A stretch of 64,000 nucleotides of DNA from a virus. Position numbers and translations under genes: made by a program. The stretch covers positions 6,040 through 70,039 of the IMG/VR virus record IMGVR_UViG_3300033146_001127. One strand, written 5' to 3'. The notes under the pieces were generated by a model. The model was not told where the DNA came from. It made no database searches and worked only from the letters and a program-made list of their open reading frames with translations. Below, one piece after another: positions 5,875 through 58,418 of the stretch. Numbering within the stretch: position 1 is the stretch's first letter; the number at the start of each line of letters is the position of its first letter.

Positions 5875-6425
5875 TATGGCATACTTCCATTTAACATTAA
5901 ATTTTTATTATGTTCTAACATTGATTTTTCATTATCAATTACATCTTTCAGATCATCCCATTCAATTGGCATAAAACCATGTGGGTCAACACCACAATCC
6001 AATGAACCAGTAACACCTTTGAGATTACCATGTGAATGACCAAACAAATGATATACACCATAATGAACTTGTGGCCAAACTAAATGTGCATAATGGGAAA
6101 TATAAACCAAATCATTTCCAATAGGAACTAAACTTGTTTCCTTGACATTATCAAATATTTTTATCAATTCTTTTTTGTGTCTATAATCATGATTACCGAG
6201 AATCAAATAATGTTTCTTTCCATTTAATCTATCCAACCACTTTTTAGGATTCCCACCAAAACAAAAATCACCTAAATGATAAACAACATCTTTATTAGTA
6301 ACCATTTTATTATGATTTTCAACCAATGTTTCATTCATTTCTTCAACAGATGAAAATGGTCTATTACAATACTTGATAATATTTTTATGGTCAAAATGTT
6401 GGTCACTAGTAAAAAATACACTCAT
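5874..6425 (-). CDS. calcineurin-like metallophosphoesterase
   Basis: SDQHFDH, HLGDF, GNHD and GHSH motifs. Confidence 0.9.
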   Translation of the reverse strand: MSVFFTSDQHFDHKNIIKYCNRPFSSVEEMNETLVENHNKMVTNKDVVYHLGDFCFGGNPKKWLDRLNGKKHYLILGNHDYRHKKELIKIFDNVKETSLVPIGNDLVYISHYAHLVWPQVHYGVYHLFGHSHGNLKGVTGSLDCGVDPHGFMPIEWDDLKDVIDNEKSMLEHNKNLMLNGSMP

Positions 6426-51297: not shown

Positions 51298-53470
51298 ATG
51301 GCAAATAGTGTAAAATTAAAAAGATCTTCTGTTGCAGGTAAAATACCAACAACAGCTGATTTGGATTTGGGTGAATTAGCAATTAACACCCATGATGGTA
51401 AGATTTTTATTAAAAAAGATGATGGTTCTGGTACAACTGCCATAATAACTGCTGGACAAGAAAGTATGCCATTAGATGGTGGATCTATGCAGGGTGATTT
51501 GGACATGAATAGTCATAAGGTTGTTGGTCTGGCTGATCCAACTTCAGATGGAGATGCTACACCAAAATCTTATGTTGATTCTTTAGTTGCTGGATTGAGA
51601 TGGAAAAATCCAGTAAAATCTGCAAGTACATCTAATTTAGATCTTAATGGAACAGAAACATTAGATGGTATTTCTTGTGGAGTTGGTGATCGGGTTTTGG
51701 TGATGAGTCAGACTAATGCTGCTGATAATGGTATATATATTGTTGCTTCTGGTGCTTGGACACGAGCAACTGATTTTGATTCATTAACACCAATTGATGA
51801 AATTAATGGTGCTGCTGTTTATGTTGAACAAGGTTCTACTATTAGGCTCCGATAATATTGATTTTGCTCAATTTAATGGAACATCCGATACTCAAGCTGG
51901 AAATGGATTAAATAAAGTTGGAAATACTTTATCTGTTGATCCTGATGGTTCGACATTAACAGTTGCAGCAGCAGGAGTTAAAATTTCTGATACTGTAATG
52001 AATACAATTAATGATAAGTTAAGTGTATCAACAGGTGGTACTCTTTCTGGTGATATATCAATATCTAAGGCTAATCCTTGGTTAACATTAGATTCTCTTA
52101 CATCTGGAGGAACAGGAACAGATCAAGGTGCTGGTATTTCAATTGGTGAAGCTGGTAAAAAAGGTGCTTCTGCATTACATTTAACTTATACTGGTGATGG
52201 ACATGGACATATTGGTATGGGTACTGTTGATGCAACAAGCGGTTTACCTCAATATGAAGCGATGACTTTAAATTATACAGATAATACAGTAAGCTTTTTA
52301 GGCGCTGTAAGTATGTCATCAAATTTATATGTTACTAATTATGTTCAAGGTAAAGTATTATACTCAACAGTTGCAACTGGAACAGCTCCACTCCATGTTG
52401 ATTCTACAACAGTTGTTTCTAACCTTAATGCAGATTTGCTTGATGGACATCATTCTAGTTATTTTTTAACGACAACTGGTAAAGCCGCTGATTCTTCAAA
52501 ATTAGAAGGACATGGTTTATTTACTGCTAATGTTGGTAGTGTAAGTATCCCAACTATTGGAGCTTCAAATGGTGTAATGGAAATAGGTAGATATATTGAT
52601 TTTCATACATCATCATCAACTACTGATTATGATATAAGGTTAAACTGTTCTGGTGCTGATACTTTACAGGTAGATGGTGGTGGCATTACAATTGCTTCTG
52701 GAACATTAGCAATTAATTCTGGTCCTTTGAATGTTAATTCTGGCAAGGTATTGATTGCTAAAAATATCGGAACATCCTCTACCTATAGTAATGGACAATT
52801 GGAATTGAGATGTACTGATGATGGTGATGTTTCTATGGGTTTCCATCGTTCAGGTGCAACTGCTTGCCAATTAAGACATGAAGGAAATGGTTTAATACTT
52901 TCAGGTACTTCTGAAACTTCAGCAGCTAATTTTAAGGTTACAGGTGGAATCACTCATGGTAGCCACCAAACACCATTGACAAATAATAATCTTAATCTTG
53001 GTTCATCTTCATTGAAATATGCAAATGTATATGCAACTACTTTTCAAGGTCGTGCTACTTCAGCTAATTATGCTGACCTTGCTGAGAAATATTCATTTGA
53101 AGATGATGTTGTATTTGATGAAGGAAGAGTTGTATTGATTTCTGATAATAACAATGTTGATTGTAAATCATCTGATGATATTGCATCGGATTCTGTTTTA
53201 GGTGTAATGTCTTTGAATCCAGCATTTATGATGAATAATGAACTTGAAGATGGTTACTATGTTGCATTAAAAGGACGTGTTCCTTGTTATGTTCAAGGTC
53301 CTGTTAGAAAAGGAGAACCATTAGTTTCTTATTTTAATGGTACAGCAATAGGGGTTAATAATAATTTACTTCAAAGTGTTGATCTCATAAAACCATCTAT
53401 TATATTTGGTAAAACATTAGAGAATATTGACGATGATGGTTTACATTTAATAGAAATTGTAGTATTATAA
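51298..53470 (+). CDS. distal tail fibre with C-terminal peptidase-G2-type chaperone, frame broken at about 51840
   Basis: VKLKRS...LDLGELAINTHDGKIF N-terminus; LNADLLDG; GVMEIGRYIDFH; TSANYADLAEKY...VALKGRVP. Confidence 0.8.
51727..51840 (+). repeat. 114-bp exact direct repeat, copy 2
   Basis: Identical to 48942-49055. Confidence 0.92.
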
Positions 53471-53499: not shown

Positions 53500-54612
53500 G
53501 TGAATACATTAATAACTGAATTTGTAGTAACTGAACAATGTAATCTTGCATGTGATTATTGTTATATGAAAAATAATAATCATTATATGAGTATAGATAA
53601 GGTAAAATTGTATATTGAGAATGTCCGTAAATTAATGGATATTTACGGATGTTCTCAATATCATATATCATATTTTGGTGGTGAACCATTATTAAATTGG
53701 GAACTTATTCAACAAGCCATTCCTCTTTTCAAAGAAGATCCTAGATGTGAATCACAAGTGATAATTAGTAATGGATTGTTATTAACACAGGAGATTATTG
53801 ATTATATTAAATCATATAATGTAGGTTTTTCATGGTCATTTGATGGGATGTGGCAAGATATGAATCGTCCACATATAACATTTAGAGAAACTTTATCTGA
53901 GTATAAAGAGAAGTTGGATTTAATAAAACAAGTAAGTTTATCAAGTAAGGTTATGGTGTCACCAAATACTATCTATACTCTTACCGAAAATCTTGAATTT
54001 TTTGTTGATGAGTGTCAGATATACAATCCTGATTTTAGTCTTGTTAGAGATGATATTTGGTCGTCTGATGACATAAAAACATTTAAGGTGGAAAGTAGAA
54101 GACTTGCTGATAGGGTAATTAAATATTATCTTGATGGTATTAATGTATCTGTTGGTTTGTATAATTTGGCTATGATGGATATGTATATGGGTAATAAGTA
54201 TGGTAAAAGACCTTTTGGCTGTTTTGCTGGTTGTCATGGTGTTGGATATTTTCCTAATGGTGATTGGTATCCTTGTGCTAGATTTGGTGCATCAAAAGAA
54301 TATTTGTTAATGGATTCAAATGGTAATGTTGACATAGAAAATATTAATAAATTAAATCAACCTAATATAACCAATCCCCAGACATATGAAGAATGTCAAG
54401 ATTGTAAATTATATAATTATTGTAATGCAGGTTGTACATATTCACAATTAAAAATTAATGGGGATGGTCAATTGTCAGCCAGTCCTGTACCATCAGTATG
54501 TGAATTATTTAAGATTGTATATGATGATACATTATATATAAATGACAAATTAAAAGATGTTTCTATTTATCAGGAATATCTTAATACAATAATAAAATCA
54601 ATAGGAGATTAA
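53500..54612 (+). CDS. radical SAM/SPASM peptide-maturase-like enzyme
   Basis: CNLACDYC, YFGGEP, SNG, SFDG; SPASM CFAG...YPC...CQDC...CNAGC...C. Confidence 0.93.
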   Translation: MNTLITEFVVTEQCNLACDYCYMKNNNHYMSIDKVKLYIENVRKLMDIYGCSQYHISYFGGEPLLNWELIQQAIPLFKEDPRCESQVIISNGLLLTQEIIDYIKSYNVGFSWSFDGMWQDMNRPHITFRETLSEYKEKLDLIKQVSLSSKVMVSPNTIYTLTENLEFFVDECQIYNPDFSLVRDDIWSSDDIKTFKVESRRLADRVIKYYLDGINVSVGLYNLAMMDMYMGNKYGKRPFGCFAGCHGVGYFPNGDWYPCARFGASKEYLLMDSNGNVDIENINKLNQPNITNPQTYEECQDCKLYNYCNAGCTYSQLKINGDGQLSASPVPSVCELFKIVYDDTLYINDKLKDVSIYQEYLNTIIKSIGD

Positions 54613-54614
54613 AT

Positions 54615-54917
54615 ATGGCACAATATGGAAATAAGTTAGAAGTTATAAGAAGATTGTTGGAAGTTGTTAAGTATATTGAGGATAGTCAAAATTCACCTGA
54701 TTTACAGGCATACAAAACAATGATTATGAAAATGATTTCAACTATGATTAATACTACAATTACAGTTAAGGAAAAAAATATTGTAGATGAACAGGTTGTT
54801 GAGGATGTAAAAGATTTTTGTGGTAATTGTACAGATCAATCTTGTTCAACTGTAACACCACAATATAATATTCAAGATACTATTGAAAAAATTAAAACAG
54901 AATTGGGATCAGTTTAG
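54615..54917 (+). CDS. small protein with CxxC..C motif between the two SPASM enzymes
   Basis: FCGNCTDQSC; AGGAG RBS. Confidence 0.7.
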   Translation: MAQYGNKLEVIRRLLEVVKYIEDSQNSPDLQAYKTMIMKMISTMINTTITVKEKNIVDEQVVEDVKDFCGNCTDQSCSTVTPQYNIQDTIEKIKTELGSV

Positions 54918-56008
54918 TGAATAACAAGAAATCATTTCATATCGATATTAATTCAACAAAAAATTGTAATCTTAGGTGTACTTATTGTTTTGAAGTTAAA
55001 AATAATGAAATAAAGAATAAGTCATTTGAACATGTGGATTCTTTAATTAGATTTATTAAAGATTTAAGAGAAACAGAATATTATAAATCCAATTATTATG
55101 AAATGGTGGTTAATTTTTGGGGTGGCGAACCTACATTAAATAAACCATTATTCAAAAGAATTATTTCTGAATATATAGAAGATACAGAAATAAGATTTTT
55201 TATGTATTCTAATGGTTATTATGTTGATGATTTTTTTGTGAATATATATAAAAAAATTCAAAAACTTAAAGTTAATGGTCATCCAAAAATTGTTGTTCAA
55301 ATTTCATATGATGGTGTTCCTGTTCATGATTTTGATCGTGTAGATATTAATGGTAATGGTTCTTCTAGTGAAATTAAAAAAACGATACAATCTTTACAAG
55401 ATAATAATATTTTTTATGTTTTGAAAAGTACCATTCAACCTAAAAATTTTAAATATTTATATGAAGCATATTTAGATGTTATAAGTCTTGATGGTAATGG
55501 ATATTTTCCTACTATTGATTTACATGAGGATTTTGATGAGAACGAATATGTTAAATATAATGATGATTTGTTTAATAGTTTATACAAGATTGCTGCATAT
55601 GAAGTTAAAAATAAAAATAATCAATTTAAGTGGTTTAAGAAGAATAGATCTTTGTGTGCCGCTGGTAATGATATGATAGCTATTGATATAAATGGTAACA
55701 TTCAACCTTGTCATGGAGCATTATATACTGATTACAATGATCATTTGATTTCTAATATAAAAGATATTGATGTTATAGAAAAACTTATAAATAGTTCTAT
55801 ATATTATAGTTCATTTTGTTTTAACGAGCCAGAGAAATGTAAACAATGTACTGTTGAGTTTTGTTTGAAGTGTAATGCAGCACATTATAATTTTAGTAAA
55901 AAAGAAAAATATGATGAAAGGTGGATGGATTTTGATAATCAAGACTATCTTTGTCATTATTTCAGAATTATTGATAATGTTTCTCAGGCTGTTAAACAAA
56001 TGAAATAG
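54917..56008 (+). CDS. radical SAM/SPASM peptide-maturase-like enzyme
   Basis: CNLRCTYC, FWGGEP, SNG, QISYDG; SPASM CAAG...QPCH...CKQC...CLKC...C. Confidence 0.93.
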   Translation: MNNKKSFHIDINSTKNCNLRCTYCFEVKNNEIKNKSFEHVDSLIRFIKDLRETEYYKSNYYEMVVNFWGGEPTLNKPLFKRIISEYIEDTEIRFFMYSNGYYVDDFFVNIYKKIQKLKVNGHPKIVVQISYDGVPVHDFDRVDINGNGSSSEIKKTIQSLQDNNIFYVLKSTIQPKNFKYLYEAYLDVISLDGNGYFPTIDLHEDFDENEYVKYNDDLFNSLYKIAAYEVKNKNNQFKWFKKNRSLCAAGNDMIAIDINGNIQPCHGALYTDYNDHLISNIKDIDVIEKLINSSIYYSSFCFNEPEKCKQCTVEFCLKCNAAHYNFSKKEKYDERWMDFDNQDYLCHYFRIIDNVSQAVKQMK

Positions 56009-56018
56009 GAGGTAATAA

Positions 56019-56630
56019 ATGGCTTGTAATGGTCATACAAATTCTTGTTCTTCTCATTCTGGTTATGTTCCAGCAACTACTATAACTTTTACCAATGAAG
56101 ATGTTGTTGCTGGGGAAGAAATTGATGCTTTGGATGAAATTCATGAACTTCTTGATAAATTAAATGATGAGTCAGATAGAAGATCAGTATTAAATGAGAG
56201 TACACCAATATCATTAACTTTAACAGATCCACTTGCATCCTCACAAATAAGACAAATAAGAGATTTGTATTTAGATATATTAAATACAACAGCATCATCT
56301 CCTATCACTGATACTGAGATAGCTGTTGGTCAACCACTAAGAGCTGACACAATAGAAACTATGAAAGATGGAATTATATCAGATTCATCTACATGTGTTT
56401 GTGATTGTAATTATGCTTGTACATGTGACTGTAACTACTGTACATGTGACTGTAACTACTGTACATGTGACTGTAACTACTGTACATGTGACTGTAACTA
56501 CTGTACATGTAACTGTAACTACTGTACATGTGACTGTAACTATTCATGTACATGTAACTGTAACTATTCATGTACATGTAACTGTAACTATTCTGATATC
56601 AGATTAAAAACTGAGATAATTTATTTTTAA
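56019..56630 (+). CDS. Cys-rich repeat protein (9 x CxCxCNY), candidate radical SAM substrate, ending in the S74 cleavage motif SDIRLK
   Basis: AGGAGG RBS; N-terminal CNGH..CSSH; 27 Cys in 66 residues. Confidence 0.85.
   Translation: MACNGHTNSCSSHSGYVPATTITFTNEDVVAGEEIDALDEIHELLDKLNDESDRRSVLNESTPISLTLTDPLASSQIRQIRDLYLDILNTTASSPITDTEIAVGQPLRADTIETMKDGIISDSSTCVCDCNYACTCDCNYCTCDCNYCTCDCNYCTCDCNYCTCNCNYCTCDCNYSCTCNCNYSCTCNCNYSDIRLKTEIIYF
56394..56591 (+). repeat. coding tandem repeat, 21/24-bp unit TGTACATGT(G/A)ACTGTAACTA(C/T), 9 units
   Basis: Read directly; units in frame with ORF 56019-56630. Confidence 0.95.
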
Positions 56631-56641
56631 AGGATTGTAAA

Positions 56642-56923
56642 ATGTTTGATAAATTGTGGACTAAAATTAAACCTGCTGTTTTTAAGTACAAAAAAAATAA
56701 GATTGGTATTGATGATGATAAGATCTATATTGGTGTAATGGCACAGGATATCATTGATGGATTATCGGAAGAAGGATATAATATTAAAGATTTTTCTATT
56801 ATAAATATGGAAGATACTGGATATTATTCTGTTGATTATATTCAATTAATACCTATTTTAATAAGTAGAATAAAAAAATTAGAAAAAGAAATTGAAATTA
56901 TAAAGAAAGGGGATATTTTATGA
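56642..56923 (+). CDS. stand-alone C-terminal part of a peptidase S74 intramolecular chaperone
   Basis: IKPAVFKYK...IGVMAQDI...YSVDYIQLIPILISRIKKLEKEIE; lacks SDxRLK; AGGA RBS. Confidence 0.8.
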   Translation: MFDKLWTKIKPAVFKYKKNKIGIDDDKIYIGVMAQDIIDGLSEEGYNIKDFSIINMEDTGYYSVDYIQLIPILISRIKKLEKEIEIIKKGDIL

Positions 56924-57519
56924 TAAATTTATTAAAGATTTATTGGAAAGGTGATGTAGGTAAAATAACAGGATATAGACAGATTGATGATAATGAAATG
57001 TATGATGAAACTAGATTTAAATCTGTTTCTGATGATGTTTATACTTATGTCTCCGAAAATTATGAAAAAGGGGAATTGACAATACCTGATACAGTTATTA
57101 ATGTAACATTAAGTGATATAACATTTACTGAGTTTGATGATGTAGTTGCGATGAAAAATAATGCATTGAATGTATTTATTAATAATGAACTTAGGGATGA
57201 TAATACCAGTTTGGATTTTTTCTTAATTTCAGTTAAATTTATTATTTTAAATAATCAATTAGCAGAAAAAGGTTTTATTTTTACCCCAACAAACAAAGAA
57301 GATGTATATCTTGATGTGTTGAATAGTGGTGATGAACAATCAATAGAGATATTAGAAGATTATATTGAAGTATTGGATGCAGTTACATCTTATAGTTCAA
57401 AAGTTAATAATTATATTTCAATGAAGAAGGCGATGACCGATTTGACTGATGTACAGACAATACTTGATACATATACTTCTTATACTGGTAGAAACCTTAT
57501 TGATGATATGAATGCTTAA
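56920..57519 (+). CDS. hypothetical protein
   Basis: 199 aa, coupled to the upstream gene. Confidence 0.7.
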   Translation: MINLLKIYWKGDVGKITGYRQIDDNEMYDETRFKSVSDDVYTYVSENYEKGELTIPDTVINVTLSDITFTEFDDVVAMKNNALNVFINNELRDDNTSLDFFLISVKFIILNNQLAEKGFIFTPTNKEDVYLDVLNSGDEQSIEILEDYIEVLDAVTSYSSKVNNYISMKKAMTDLTDVQTILDTYTSYTGRNLIDDMNA

Positions 57520-58418
57520 TGAAATCATTTGATGGTGACAATGCTGTAATATTTGGACTTGTTATTGATCATAAATGTAATATAATTCCTATGGGTTCGT
57601 TATATGATTCAATTGAATATTTTTTGAATATATATGATGTTAATAATGATATCAAATTGTTATTTCATTTAATTCCTAATGATGGATTTATTGAAAGAAA
57701 TAAAACATACAAAAGATTTGAAAAAGAAGTAACTAATATTTTAAAAAAAATCAGAGATATAATTGAAATTCGGTATTATACCTCTGATTTTTCTTTTTTT
57801 GATAACATACATATTGTTGACATAAAACAATTATTTTTGAATAATAAATTTAATAAAATATTAACAATTGATATGTCAACTCCTCAAACATTTAAATCAT
57901 TTATTGCCAGAGCAAATGAAATTATTATCATACCAGAATTAACTAAATATCAATATTTTTATAAATCTAATAGAAATAAAGTTACATATTATACCGAAAT
58001 GCCATTTTGTTATTGTGATGTTCCTTATAGAATTAAATTTGATTTTGAGAGGACAAAATCAATAGATAATTTTGATAATAAATTATATGTTAATTATCCT
58101 AAATTGAATCCTTATGATGATATTGATGTTAAAAATAAAATAGAAAAAATAAATAAAGATGTTTTGATAAAAGAAGATAATTTTTTTTATGATTTGCATA
58201 AACATTTTAATGAATATATGTATATAAAATCATTAATGTGGTTTGACCCTCATCCAAAATTATTTCATGAGTGTAAATATTATAATAAAGAATATCATTA
58301 TTTTAATAGGTATAATATAAAAGATGGTTCATATTATAGATATAATTGGAGTTTGACTGATAAATTGAAAGATTTACAGTTGAATAAAGATGATATTATA
58401 ATAAGGATGATGAGTTAA
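57519..58418 (+). CDS. hypothetical protein, possibly glycosyltransferase-like
   Basis: C-terminal FDPHPKLFHECKYY loosely resembles the GT-B nucleotide-sugar motif. Confidence 0.4.
   Translation: MKSFDGDNAVIFGLVIDHKCNIIPMGSLYDSIEYFLNIYDVNNDIKLLFHLIPNDGFIERNKTYKRFEKEVTNILKKIRDIIEIRYYTSDFSFFDNIHIVDIKQLFLNNKFNKILTIDMSTPQTFKSFIARANEIIIIPELTKYQYFYKSNRNKVTYYTEMPFCYCDVPYRIKFDFERTKSIDNFDNKLYVNYPKLNPYDDIDVKNKIEKINKDVLIKEDNFFYDLHKHFNEYMYIKSLMWFDPHPKLFHECKYYNKEYHYFNRYNIKDGSYYRYNWSLTDKLKDLQLNKDDIIIRMMS

Follow-up and report, generated by a model that had tools for sequence, protein, structure and literature searches.

Domains of the Peptidase_S74 family (PF13884, CIMCD/ICA) are the textbook 'intramolecular' chaperones of phage fibres, phage spikes, and the animal factor MYRF. 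Tail-fibre chaperones are also known as separately encoded proteins, e.g., T4 gp57A/gp38 and those of the Tfa type, in which a small protein aids the folding of a trimeric fibre and is absent from the final fibre. To our knowledge, the latter are unrelated to S74 in sequence and fold and do not come with a self-removing Ser-Lys tag on the cargo. Here, we describe a locus on a 64,000-nucleotide (nt) stretch of viral DNA, hereafter the window (positions 6,040 to 70,039 of IMG/VR record IMGVR_UViG_3300033146_001127, which comprises 70,039 bp and is by estimate about 27% complete), in which an S74 domain is divided between two genes, namely a Cys-rich protein of 203 amino acids (aa) ending in the first 12 residues of the domain and a 93-aa open reading frame (ORF) encoding the remainder. 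Probably, the 12-residue tag represents the 'cable' of such a domain with its Ser-Lys dyad, and the 93-aa protein supplies what remains of the chaperone, acting in trans.

T5 pb1 is reported to be cut at Thr1263-Ser1264, and residues 1265-1276 after this Ser form a loop of 12 residues followed by the first chaperone hairpin (PMC4690869). For MyRF, mass spectrometry puts the cut at P586-S587, where the cleavage-site 'cable' of a neighbouring subunit threads the beta 'donut' and is cut, and cleavage requires the trimerised ICA domain but not the stalk (PMC8326128). The Ser-Lys dyad is needed for cleavage (PMC3742440, PMC8326128), MyRF S587C still being cleaved (PMC3742440), and catalysis in phage S74 proteins also involves a stalk Arg supplied by a neighbouring chain (T5 Arg1250 and endoNF Arg897; PMC4690869, PMC8326128). 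The fused phage S74 proteins (K1F endosialidase, T5 pb1, and the GA-1 neck appendage; 3gw6, 3gud) resemble the locus of the window with respect to the PF13884 family, the dyad at the domain start, the C-terminal helix, the C-terminal place on a repeat-rich fibre-like protein, and the tail-fibre gene block. While they form one chain with their cargo, hence 'intramolecular', the cargo of the window contains no more than the first 12 residues of the domain, all else being encoded by a separate ORF, which in relatives is found in varying frames and positions. With 12 + 93 aa, the domain is also minimal compared to 133 residues in T5 (PMC4690869). MyRF, in turn, is a fused eukaryotic membrane transcription factor and has no separate gene for the donut, but its cutting between subunits without need of the stalk is the property that a trans version would require. 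Since the contact of cable and donut is already inter-chain in fused proteins, the split sits at a natural boundary. In the accessible full-text literature, including PMC12632334, PMC3742440, PMC4690869, PMC8326128, PMC7824862, and PMC11058221, a split or trans-acting S74 domain was not found, so that in a well-known family the two-gene form, in which the cargo bears a 12-residue tag, appears to be new within the literature searched.

The Cys-rich ORF (56019-56630) terminates with ...CNCNY-SDIRLKTEIIYF, followed by TAA, and S192 and K197 of its last 12 residues match the S-x4-K spacing of the Ser-Lys dyad among the first residues of an S74 domain. As expected for just 12 residues, the tag alone, scanned as a 42-aa piece, gave no Pfam match. 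A first-pass annotation of the window, made from the letters only, had noticed this end and the ORF with its own AGGA that begins 11 nt on, and both were confirmed from the sequence and the ORFs. The second ORF (56642-56923) reads MFDKLWTKIKPAVFKYK...GVMAQD...VDYIQLIPILISRIKKLEKEIEIIKK and displays a KPAVFKYK strand, the motifs GVMAQD and VDYIQLIP, and a C-terminal helix. It matched PF13884 with 22.2 bits over profile positions 20-57/58 (gathering cut-off 22), and its 102-aa read-back did so with 23.1 bits (E 9.5e-5, positions 19-57/58), so that by the family model it belongs to Peptidase_S74, in agreement with the first-pass view that it holds the rest of such a domain. Since the other protein carries roughly a quarter of the model, the score is borderline. 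In all three fused relatives scanned (P0148, P0045, and P0046), profile position 1 was the Ser of the S-D motif; therefore, the tag (approximately profile positions 1-12) and the 93-aa ORF (approximately position 15 to the end) are complementary pieces of one domain, which do not overlap and leave about two profile positions unaccounted for.

An alignment of 19 stand-alone remainder sequences (A2), all of which start 4-9 residues ahead of the LKP..F.Y strand, was used as a profile and matched the solved S74 domains 3gud (GA-1, 1.4e-6), 7dc3 (the 'cable cutter' of MyRF, 2e-4, almost full length), and 3gw6 (endosialidase F, 2.4e-3), and also 8jov (tail fibre) and 6eu4 (tail spike, E 7.8e-3). In 3gud_A, the chain of the released GA-1 chaperone, the alignment begins at residue 16. 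When the 93-aa ORF was used as query in an exhaustive HMMER search, 127 matches were obtained, 39 of which had up to 105 aa, 11 had 106-200 aa, and 77 were longer, most of these being C-termini of fibre proteins. The best seven were all stand-alone proteins of 87-97 aa (E up to 3.3e-11), and within their first 40 residues, the 39 stand-alone remainders of up to 105 aa all lacked an S-D..L-K motif.

The search for homologues of the cargo, run on 5.8 billion proteins, used residues 1-140 alone, which makes its outcome independent of the tail. This revealed 29 homologues with 26-76% identity, 17 of which terminate with S-D-x-x-L-K-x-x-I-x-Y-[FLMI]-stop and thus keep the split at the same residue; among the remaining 12, some are truncated at the end of a contig and others possess different C-termini. 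In the alignment of these 17 tagged homologues and the window (A1, 18 sequences selected for tag presence), S192, D193, L196, K197, I200, and Y202 are invariant, i.e., 6 of the 12 tag positions at a mean column identity of 32%. One metagenome contig (L102) displayed the variant tag C-D-N-R-L-K-K-N-I-I-Y-I, in which Cys replaces the catalytic Ser, with an intact remainder gene next to it. At the DNA level, 27 viral loci were collected by A1, 23 viral loci by an alignment of seven remainder sequences (A3), and 77 metagenome loci by A1, and tag sites were dereplicated on the basis of 140 nt of context, with L001-L003 and the duplicates L031/L032 excluded. At the resulting 44 unique tag sites from viral and metagenome contigs, the remainder was adjacent at 25, farther away at eight, and absent from the locus at 11, seven of the last being within 730 nt of a contig end or having another precursor as the next gene. 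Searches of 50,697 phage records with both proteins by tblastn gave no match, where low-complexity filtering probably affected the repeats, and no relative was confirmed when viral contigs were scanned for loci using a single protein, either the 93-aa ORF or the second of two neighbouring radical S-adenosylmethionine (SAM) enzymes.

As an alternative to two pieces acting in trans, the first-pass annotation had proposed a programmed -1 ribosomal frameshift at TAT TTT TAA, which would produce an S74 fusion in cis, at least in some ribosomes. The remainder of the window indeed lies in the -1 frame relative to the upstream ORF and this frame is open back to 56615, as had been stated; a tRNA-Phe could re-pair on the run of five T at 56624-56628, and L043 likewise combines a T-run with a -1 offset. 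However, the open stretch comprises only nine codons, which is expected by chance, and contains no start codon, the remainder has its own AGGA and ATG, and an X XXY YYZ heptamer is absent at the junction. Moreover, the 25 adjacent remainders lie in frame 0 relative to the tag in 11 cases, in -1 in nine, and in +1 in five, whereas a recoding signal would hold one frame. Even among the nine pairs at -1, a T-run is present only in the window and L043; in L066, a stop interrupts the -1 frame ahead of the ATG, and a slippery run is absent from L064, L080, L106, and L124. Relatives sharing the ...YF end harbor the remainder upstream (L070) or have none nearby (L004, L078, L090, L122), and in five loci tandem tagged genes have one common remainder. 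Thus, recoding at this junction is very improbable.

An assembly or sequencing indel that split a normally fused gene has a negligible chance of being the cause. Homopolymer T-runs are error-prone, and coverage was checked with contigs rather than with raw reads; run X1, whose contigs were used, is possibly the source sample, and assembled contigs conceal rare variants. Nevertheless, its Logan contig spans 56564-56714 with 0 differences and 0 gaps, the same stop recurs in 17 of the 29 homologues, which are independent of the window, as well as at the 44 unique sites of other contigs, and the family of stand-alone remainders is large. An indel error, named in the first-pass annotation as one outcome that would speak against the split, was therefore not observed, and neither was the other, a family of fused genes throughout. 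Fused Cys-rich forms do exist (P0148, L105, L113, L131, L104, L101) as a minority of the homologues, so that the split is a variant in a family that has the ordinary architecture as well. Judged from the sequences, the two-gene split is genuine and is neither an assembly error nor a programmed frameshift.

That the two pieces form a trans-acting chaperone/protease, the other reading of the first-pass annotation, is supported by this conserved split, by the own start of the remainder and its occurrence in all three frames, and in particular by the arrangement of the genes in relatives. Two tandem tagged genes with a single remainder gene were found in L060, L062, L063 (= L071), L064, and L103; as no read-through or slip could fuse the first tandem gene, action in trans is required in those loci. 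The remainder is located 5 kb downstream of the tag in L025, 4.4 kb upstream in L033, and 0.9 kb upstream in L070. Among unique Cys-heptad genes with enough downstream sequence, a remainder followed within 1.5 kb in 22 of 30 tagged and 6 of 37 tagless precursors (Fisher p 3.8e-6), figures which serve as a description rather than as a formal test since the rows are phylogenetically related. No remainder was present in any of five whole records with tagless precursors. The same split was also identified on other cargo, namely on 311-335-aa non-heptad proteins (L044/L045, L050), for which searches of Pfam and PHROGs with the cargo of L044 and L050 found nothing. A second class of split was detected on Gly-rich proteins of the viral contigs L040-42 and L047, where the tag has 22-26 residues including the first helix of the domain and the stand-alone remainder opens with its own copy of this helix, resulting in a partial duplication at the junction. 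In L040/L041, both ORFs lie in one frame with a single stop between them.

Co-folding of the two pieces in silico as a trimer, with three precursor pieces (residues 160-203) and three remainders based on alignments A1 and A2, predicted docking with a score of 0.75, compared to 0.02 for the best of three controls. Of 80 solved complexes, 58 attained the 0.75 mark, as did 2 of 110 mismatched pairs, though the custom alignments and the 3+3 copies make this co-fold unlike its calibration. The runs share at least 68% of contacts, with a predicted local distance difference test (pLDDT) value of at least 82 for the partner. In the model, the interface on the cargo is restricted to residues 190-203, with tag residues 196-202 placed against residues 10-17 of the remainder and S192/D193 against residues 31-35 (G31-Q35) and 61-66 (Y61-Y66).

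In the proposed mechanism, cargo and 93-aa protein would be translated separately, as the two ORFs suggest, the latter providing the putative beta 'donut' and the trimerising C-terminal helix. Three tags are predicted by the model to dock into a trimer of the 93-aa protein, which would bring three cargo C-termini into register and nucleate the trimeric folding of the CxCxCNY repeats. Subsequently, the dyad would cut between Y191 and S192, so that the 12-mer departs with the chaperone, and the chaperone could then serve several tagged cargo proteins, possibly in several rounds. Regarding the site, the first-pass annotation had assumed self-cleavage after the Ser, leaving a final CNYS unit. According to published structures and mass spectrometry, however, T5 pb1 and MyRF are cut on the N-terminal side of the Ser; hence, the Ser would leave as part of the tag, and the mature protein would terminate in ...CNCNY and thus in a complete heptad.

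Several observations weigh against this reading. We infer binding, trimerisation, and cleavage alike, the Pfam score of the remainder barely exceeds the cut-off, and no equivalent of the stalk Arg was identifiable in the Cys repeats. As fused S74 trimers have already been solved, the co-fold result may be memory and may display the likeness to a complete domain rather than the binding of this particular pair. Six of the 37 tagless precursors have a remainder nearby, several of them being tandem arrays or variant tags (one is L102). Conversely, tags without a remainder despite 1.3-6 kb of downstream sequence were found in L004, L009, L090, and L122. The records of L004, L009, and L010 (21%, 66%, and 65% complete) gave no match to A2 or PF13884 even at E 10; either the remainder resides in the missing parts of these genomes or the tag is kept for another reason. 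Finally, a domain tree (FastTree, 164 rows and 93 columns; rows spanning model position 12 or lower to 75 or higher, identical rows merged) required 14 changes of the split state compared to 54.6 with shuffled labels, at least three of which were forced by well-supported branches, but its poor resolution precludes counting the split events or deciding between a single and a repeated origin.

The persistence of tags in records with no detectable remainder, the missing Arg 'sensor', and the radical SAM genes that are always nearby would also fit a pair that is purely a docking device without proteolysis, such as a trimerisation clamp or particle adaptor, or a tag kept for another partner, e.g., for recognition by the radical SAM enzymes. 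We consider this unlikely, as Ser and Lys are present in every tag, including the 17 found irrespective of the tag, apart from the Ser-to-Cys exchange of L102, a change that preserves cleavage in MyRF (PMC3742440). In addition, three tagless relatives (two in L066 and one in L116) terminate exactly at ...CNCNY, the predicted cleaved end. Alternatively, the split might have broken the domain and left a decaying relic with both pieces drifting to loss, in line with the 31 of 37 tagless relatives without a nearby remainder and with a remnant of about 130 nt of a remainder start (MFILNFIKKIKP...) after a tagless precursor in L028/L029 (6520-6650). While this remnant suggests a decayed copy and loss of the system in that lineage, decay has little to recommend it as a general explanation, given the intact remainder ORFs kept at 25-70% identity with their own starts, the invariance of half the tag against the low mean column identity of A1, and the strong association of tag and remainder. 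Thus, a tag read in trans by the 93-aa chaperone is still the reading we prefer.

Table 1. Coordinates of the split S74 module and its neighbouring genes in the window.
Feature	Position	Strand	Basis or remark
Tail-fibre-like protein, 558 aa	51794..53470	+	PHROG phrog_19602 tail fiber protein, E 4.4e-18; context only
Radical SAM/SPASM enzyme 1 (rSAM1), 370 aa, PapB-like peptide maturase	53500..54612	+	Pfam Radical_SAM 49.4 bits
100-aa protein between the two radical SAM genes	54615..54917	+	Weak homologue at the same place in L005-L008
Radical SAM/SPASM enzyme 2 (rSAM2), 363 aa, PapB-like peptide maturase	54917..56008	+	Pfam Radical_SAM 46.3 bits
Cys-rich cargo body, predicted mature protein	56019..56591	+	Translation, 29 homologues, PHROG phrog_26958 E 2e-21
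12-residue C-terminal tag SDIRLKTEIIYF with S192 and K197	56592..56627	+	Sequence; approximately S74 profile 1-12
TAA stop (56628-56630) and 11-nt spacer AGGATTGTAAA	56628..56641	+	AGGA (56631-56634) 7 nt ahead of ATG
Stand-alone S74 remainder, 93 aa	56642..56923	+	PF13884 22.2-23.1 bits (cut-off 22)
p199, conserved gene, 199 aa	56920..57519	+	ATG overlaps the TGA of the remainder (ATGA)

The window codes for a portal, a major head protein, a terminase, a head-tail adaptor, and several fibre-like genes, and the split module ends this structural block. Its genes follow one another in the series tail-fibre-like gene, rSAM1, 100-aa ORF, rSAM2, Cys-rich ORF, 93-aa ORF, and conserved genes (Table 1). 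This order is kept across many large-phage contigs, with a fibre-like gene, rSAM1, sometimes the 100-aa ORF, rSAM2, one or more precursors, sometimes the remainder, p199, and p299. Homologues of the 558-aa fibre gene were found at the same place in L009, L010, L013, L018, L027, and L028. The C-terminal part of its product matched Pfam Peptidase_G2 with 19.1 bits, which is under the cut-off of 25; judging by this match, two distinct fibre-chaperone types, Peptidase_G2-like and S74, may lie side by side. This fibre ORF, started by TTG, overlaps by 62 nt with a fibre-like ORF of 185 aa (51298-51855). For the 100-aa protein, scans of Pfam, NCBIfam, and PHROG revealed no family above cut-off. Homologues of p199 come after the precursor or the remainder in L004, L005-8, L013, L018, L020, L027, and L028, and p199 and p299 together (window positions 56920-58418) trail the module in most relatives, with or without the remainder gene. 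For p199, no named family was matched in Pfam, NCBIfam, or PHROGs, the only matches of the two genes being phrog_25260 and phrog_14526 of unknown function. In L009 (6569-8711), one precursor with the tag and one without it stand in tandem, and a remainder is missing from the 207 kb.

With regard to the cargo itself, the protein consists of a Cys/His-rich N-terminus, a helical part of about 110 aa, and CxCxCNY heptads/octads from C126 (56394) to Y191 (56591). An AlphaFold 2 monomer model of the precursor displayed helices at residues 37-55, 74-88, and 109-123 with a mean pLDDT of 64, the repeats and the tag being below 50, and a Foldseek comparison of this model with the PDB revealed nothing at an E value of 1e-3 or better. 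The N-terminus (56019-56070) reads M-A-C-x-G-H-T-x-x-C-x-x-H-x-G-Y, with homologues P0004, P0006, and P0007, and three to six copies of the C-x-G-H unit were found in some relatives. This unit may bind a metal or serve as another target of modification.

Both neighbouring enzymes displayed a radical SAM core together with a SPASM match, namely NCBIfam TIGR04085 with 38.8 bits for rSAM1 (cut-off 27) and Pfam SPASM with 17.7 bits for rSAM2 (below the cut-off of 21.5). The best NCBIfam family was rSAM_PapB (NF047865) with 139.9 and 97.3 bits, respectively, which is far short of the equivalog cut-off of 340, so that on these scores they would at most work like the PapB class. As in PapB ranthipeptide systems, two radical SAM/SPASM enzymes are located beside a protein with regularly spaced Cys and Asp/Asn; while the substrate there is a short secreted peptide, the would-be substrate in the window is a fibre-like protein of 191 aa in a virion gene block. 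Separately, we infer that the two PapB-like enzymes probably cross-link the Cys repeats. Two to four extra radical SAM-like genes after the precursors were observed in some relatives (viral contigs L009, L011, and L012).

Similar heptads were identified in Campylobacter phages. At the DNA level, nothing among the 50,697 phage records matched except 17 records of Campylobacter group II phages, which did so through their heptad repeats (up to 4% of the query). CPt10 gp145 and CP220 CPT_0180 (phrog_26958) share the CxCDCNY heptads, and the radical SAM gene of CPt10/CP220 about 2 kb away is similar to rSAM2 at the 1e-59 level (L021, L030). In contrast to the cargo of the window, gp145 is a 534-aa protein that carries its heptads mid-sequence and whose Cys-rich C-terminus differs, and neither an S74 tag nor a remainder gene was found at the CPt10 gp145 / CP220 CPT_0180 locus. 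Heptads in gp145 together with the homologous radical SAM gene were seen in CPt10 (L001 4131-5735 and 8055-9224), CP220, and CP21. The accessible part of the CP220/CPt10 genome report notes a 21-bp intragenic repeat and many radical SAM genes, which it does not connect (PMC2853527). Among large phages, the module generally appears as at least one fibre-like protein with CxC[D/N]CNY heptads, accompanied by two and in some cases as many as six PapB-like radical SAM/SPASM genes. This suggests enzyme-made cross-links in a virion-associated protein rather than in a secreted peptide; radical SAM enzymes acting on phage fibres were not found in the searchable, partly accessible literature. Speculatively, and with more doubt than confidence, the tag could be a portable, self-removing trimerisation tag that is read by a free, turning-over chaperone serving tandem Cys-heptad paralogues as well as the unrelated 311-335-aa and Gly-rich cargo. 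The split might then let the radical SAM enzymes first staple the unfolded Cys repeats by thioether bonds, before the chaperone zips three chains into a covalently braced fibre.

If action in trans is true, an S74 domain can act between molecules, a minimal element for recognition and cleavage would become definable, and a single chaperone gene would serve several fibre genes, while protein engineers would gain a short self-removing trimerisation tag. This would be of relevance for fibre assembly and for autoprocessing of the MYRF type. The locus also indicates a conserved module of large phages, in which fibre-like Cys-repeat proteins adjoin peptide-modifying radical SAM enzymes.

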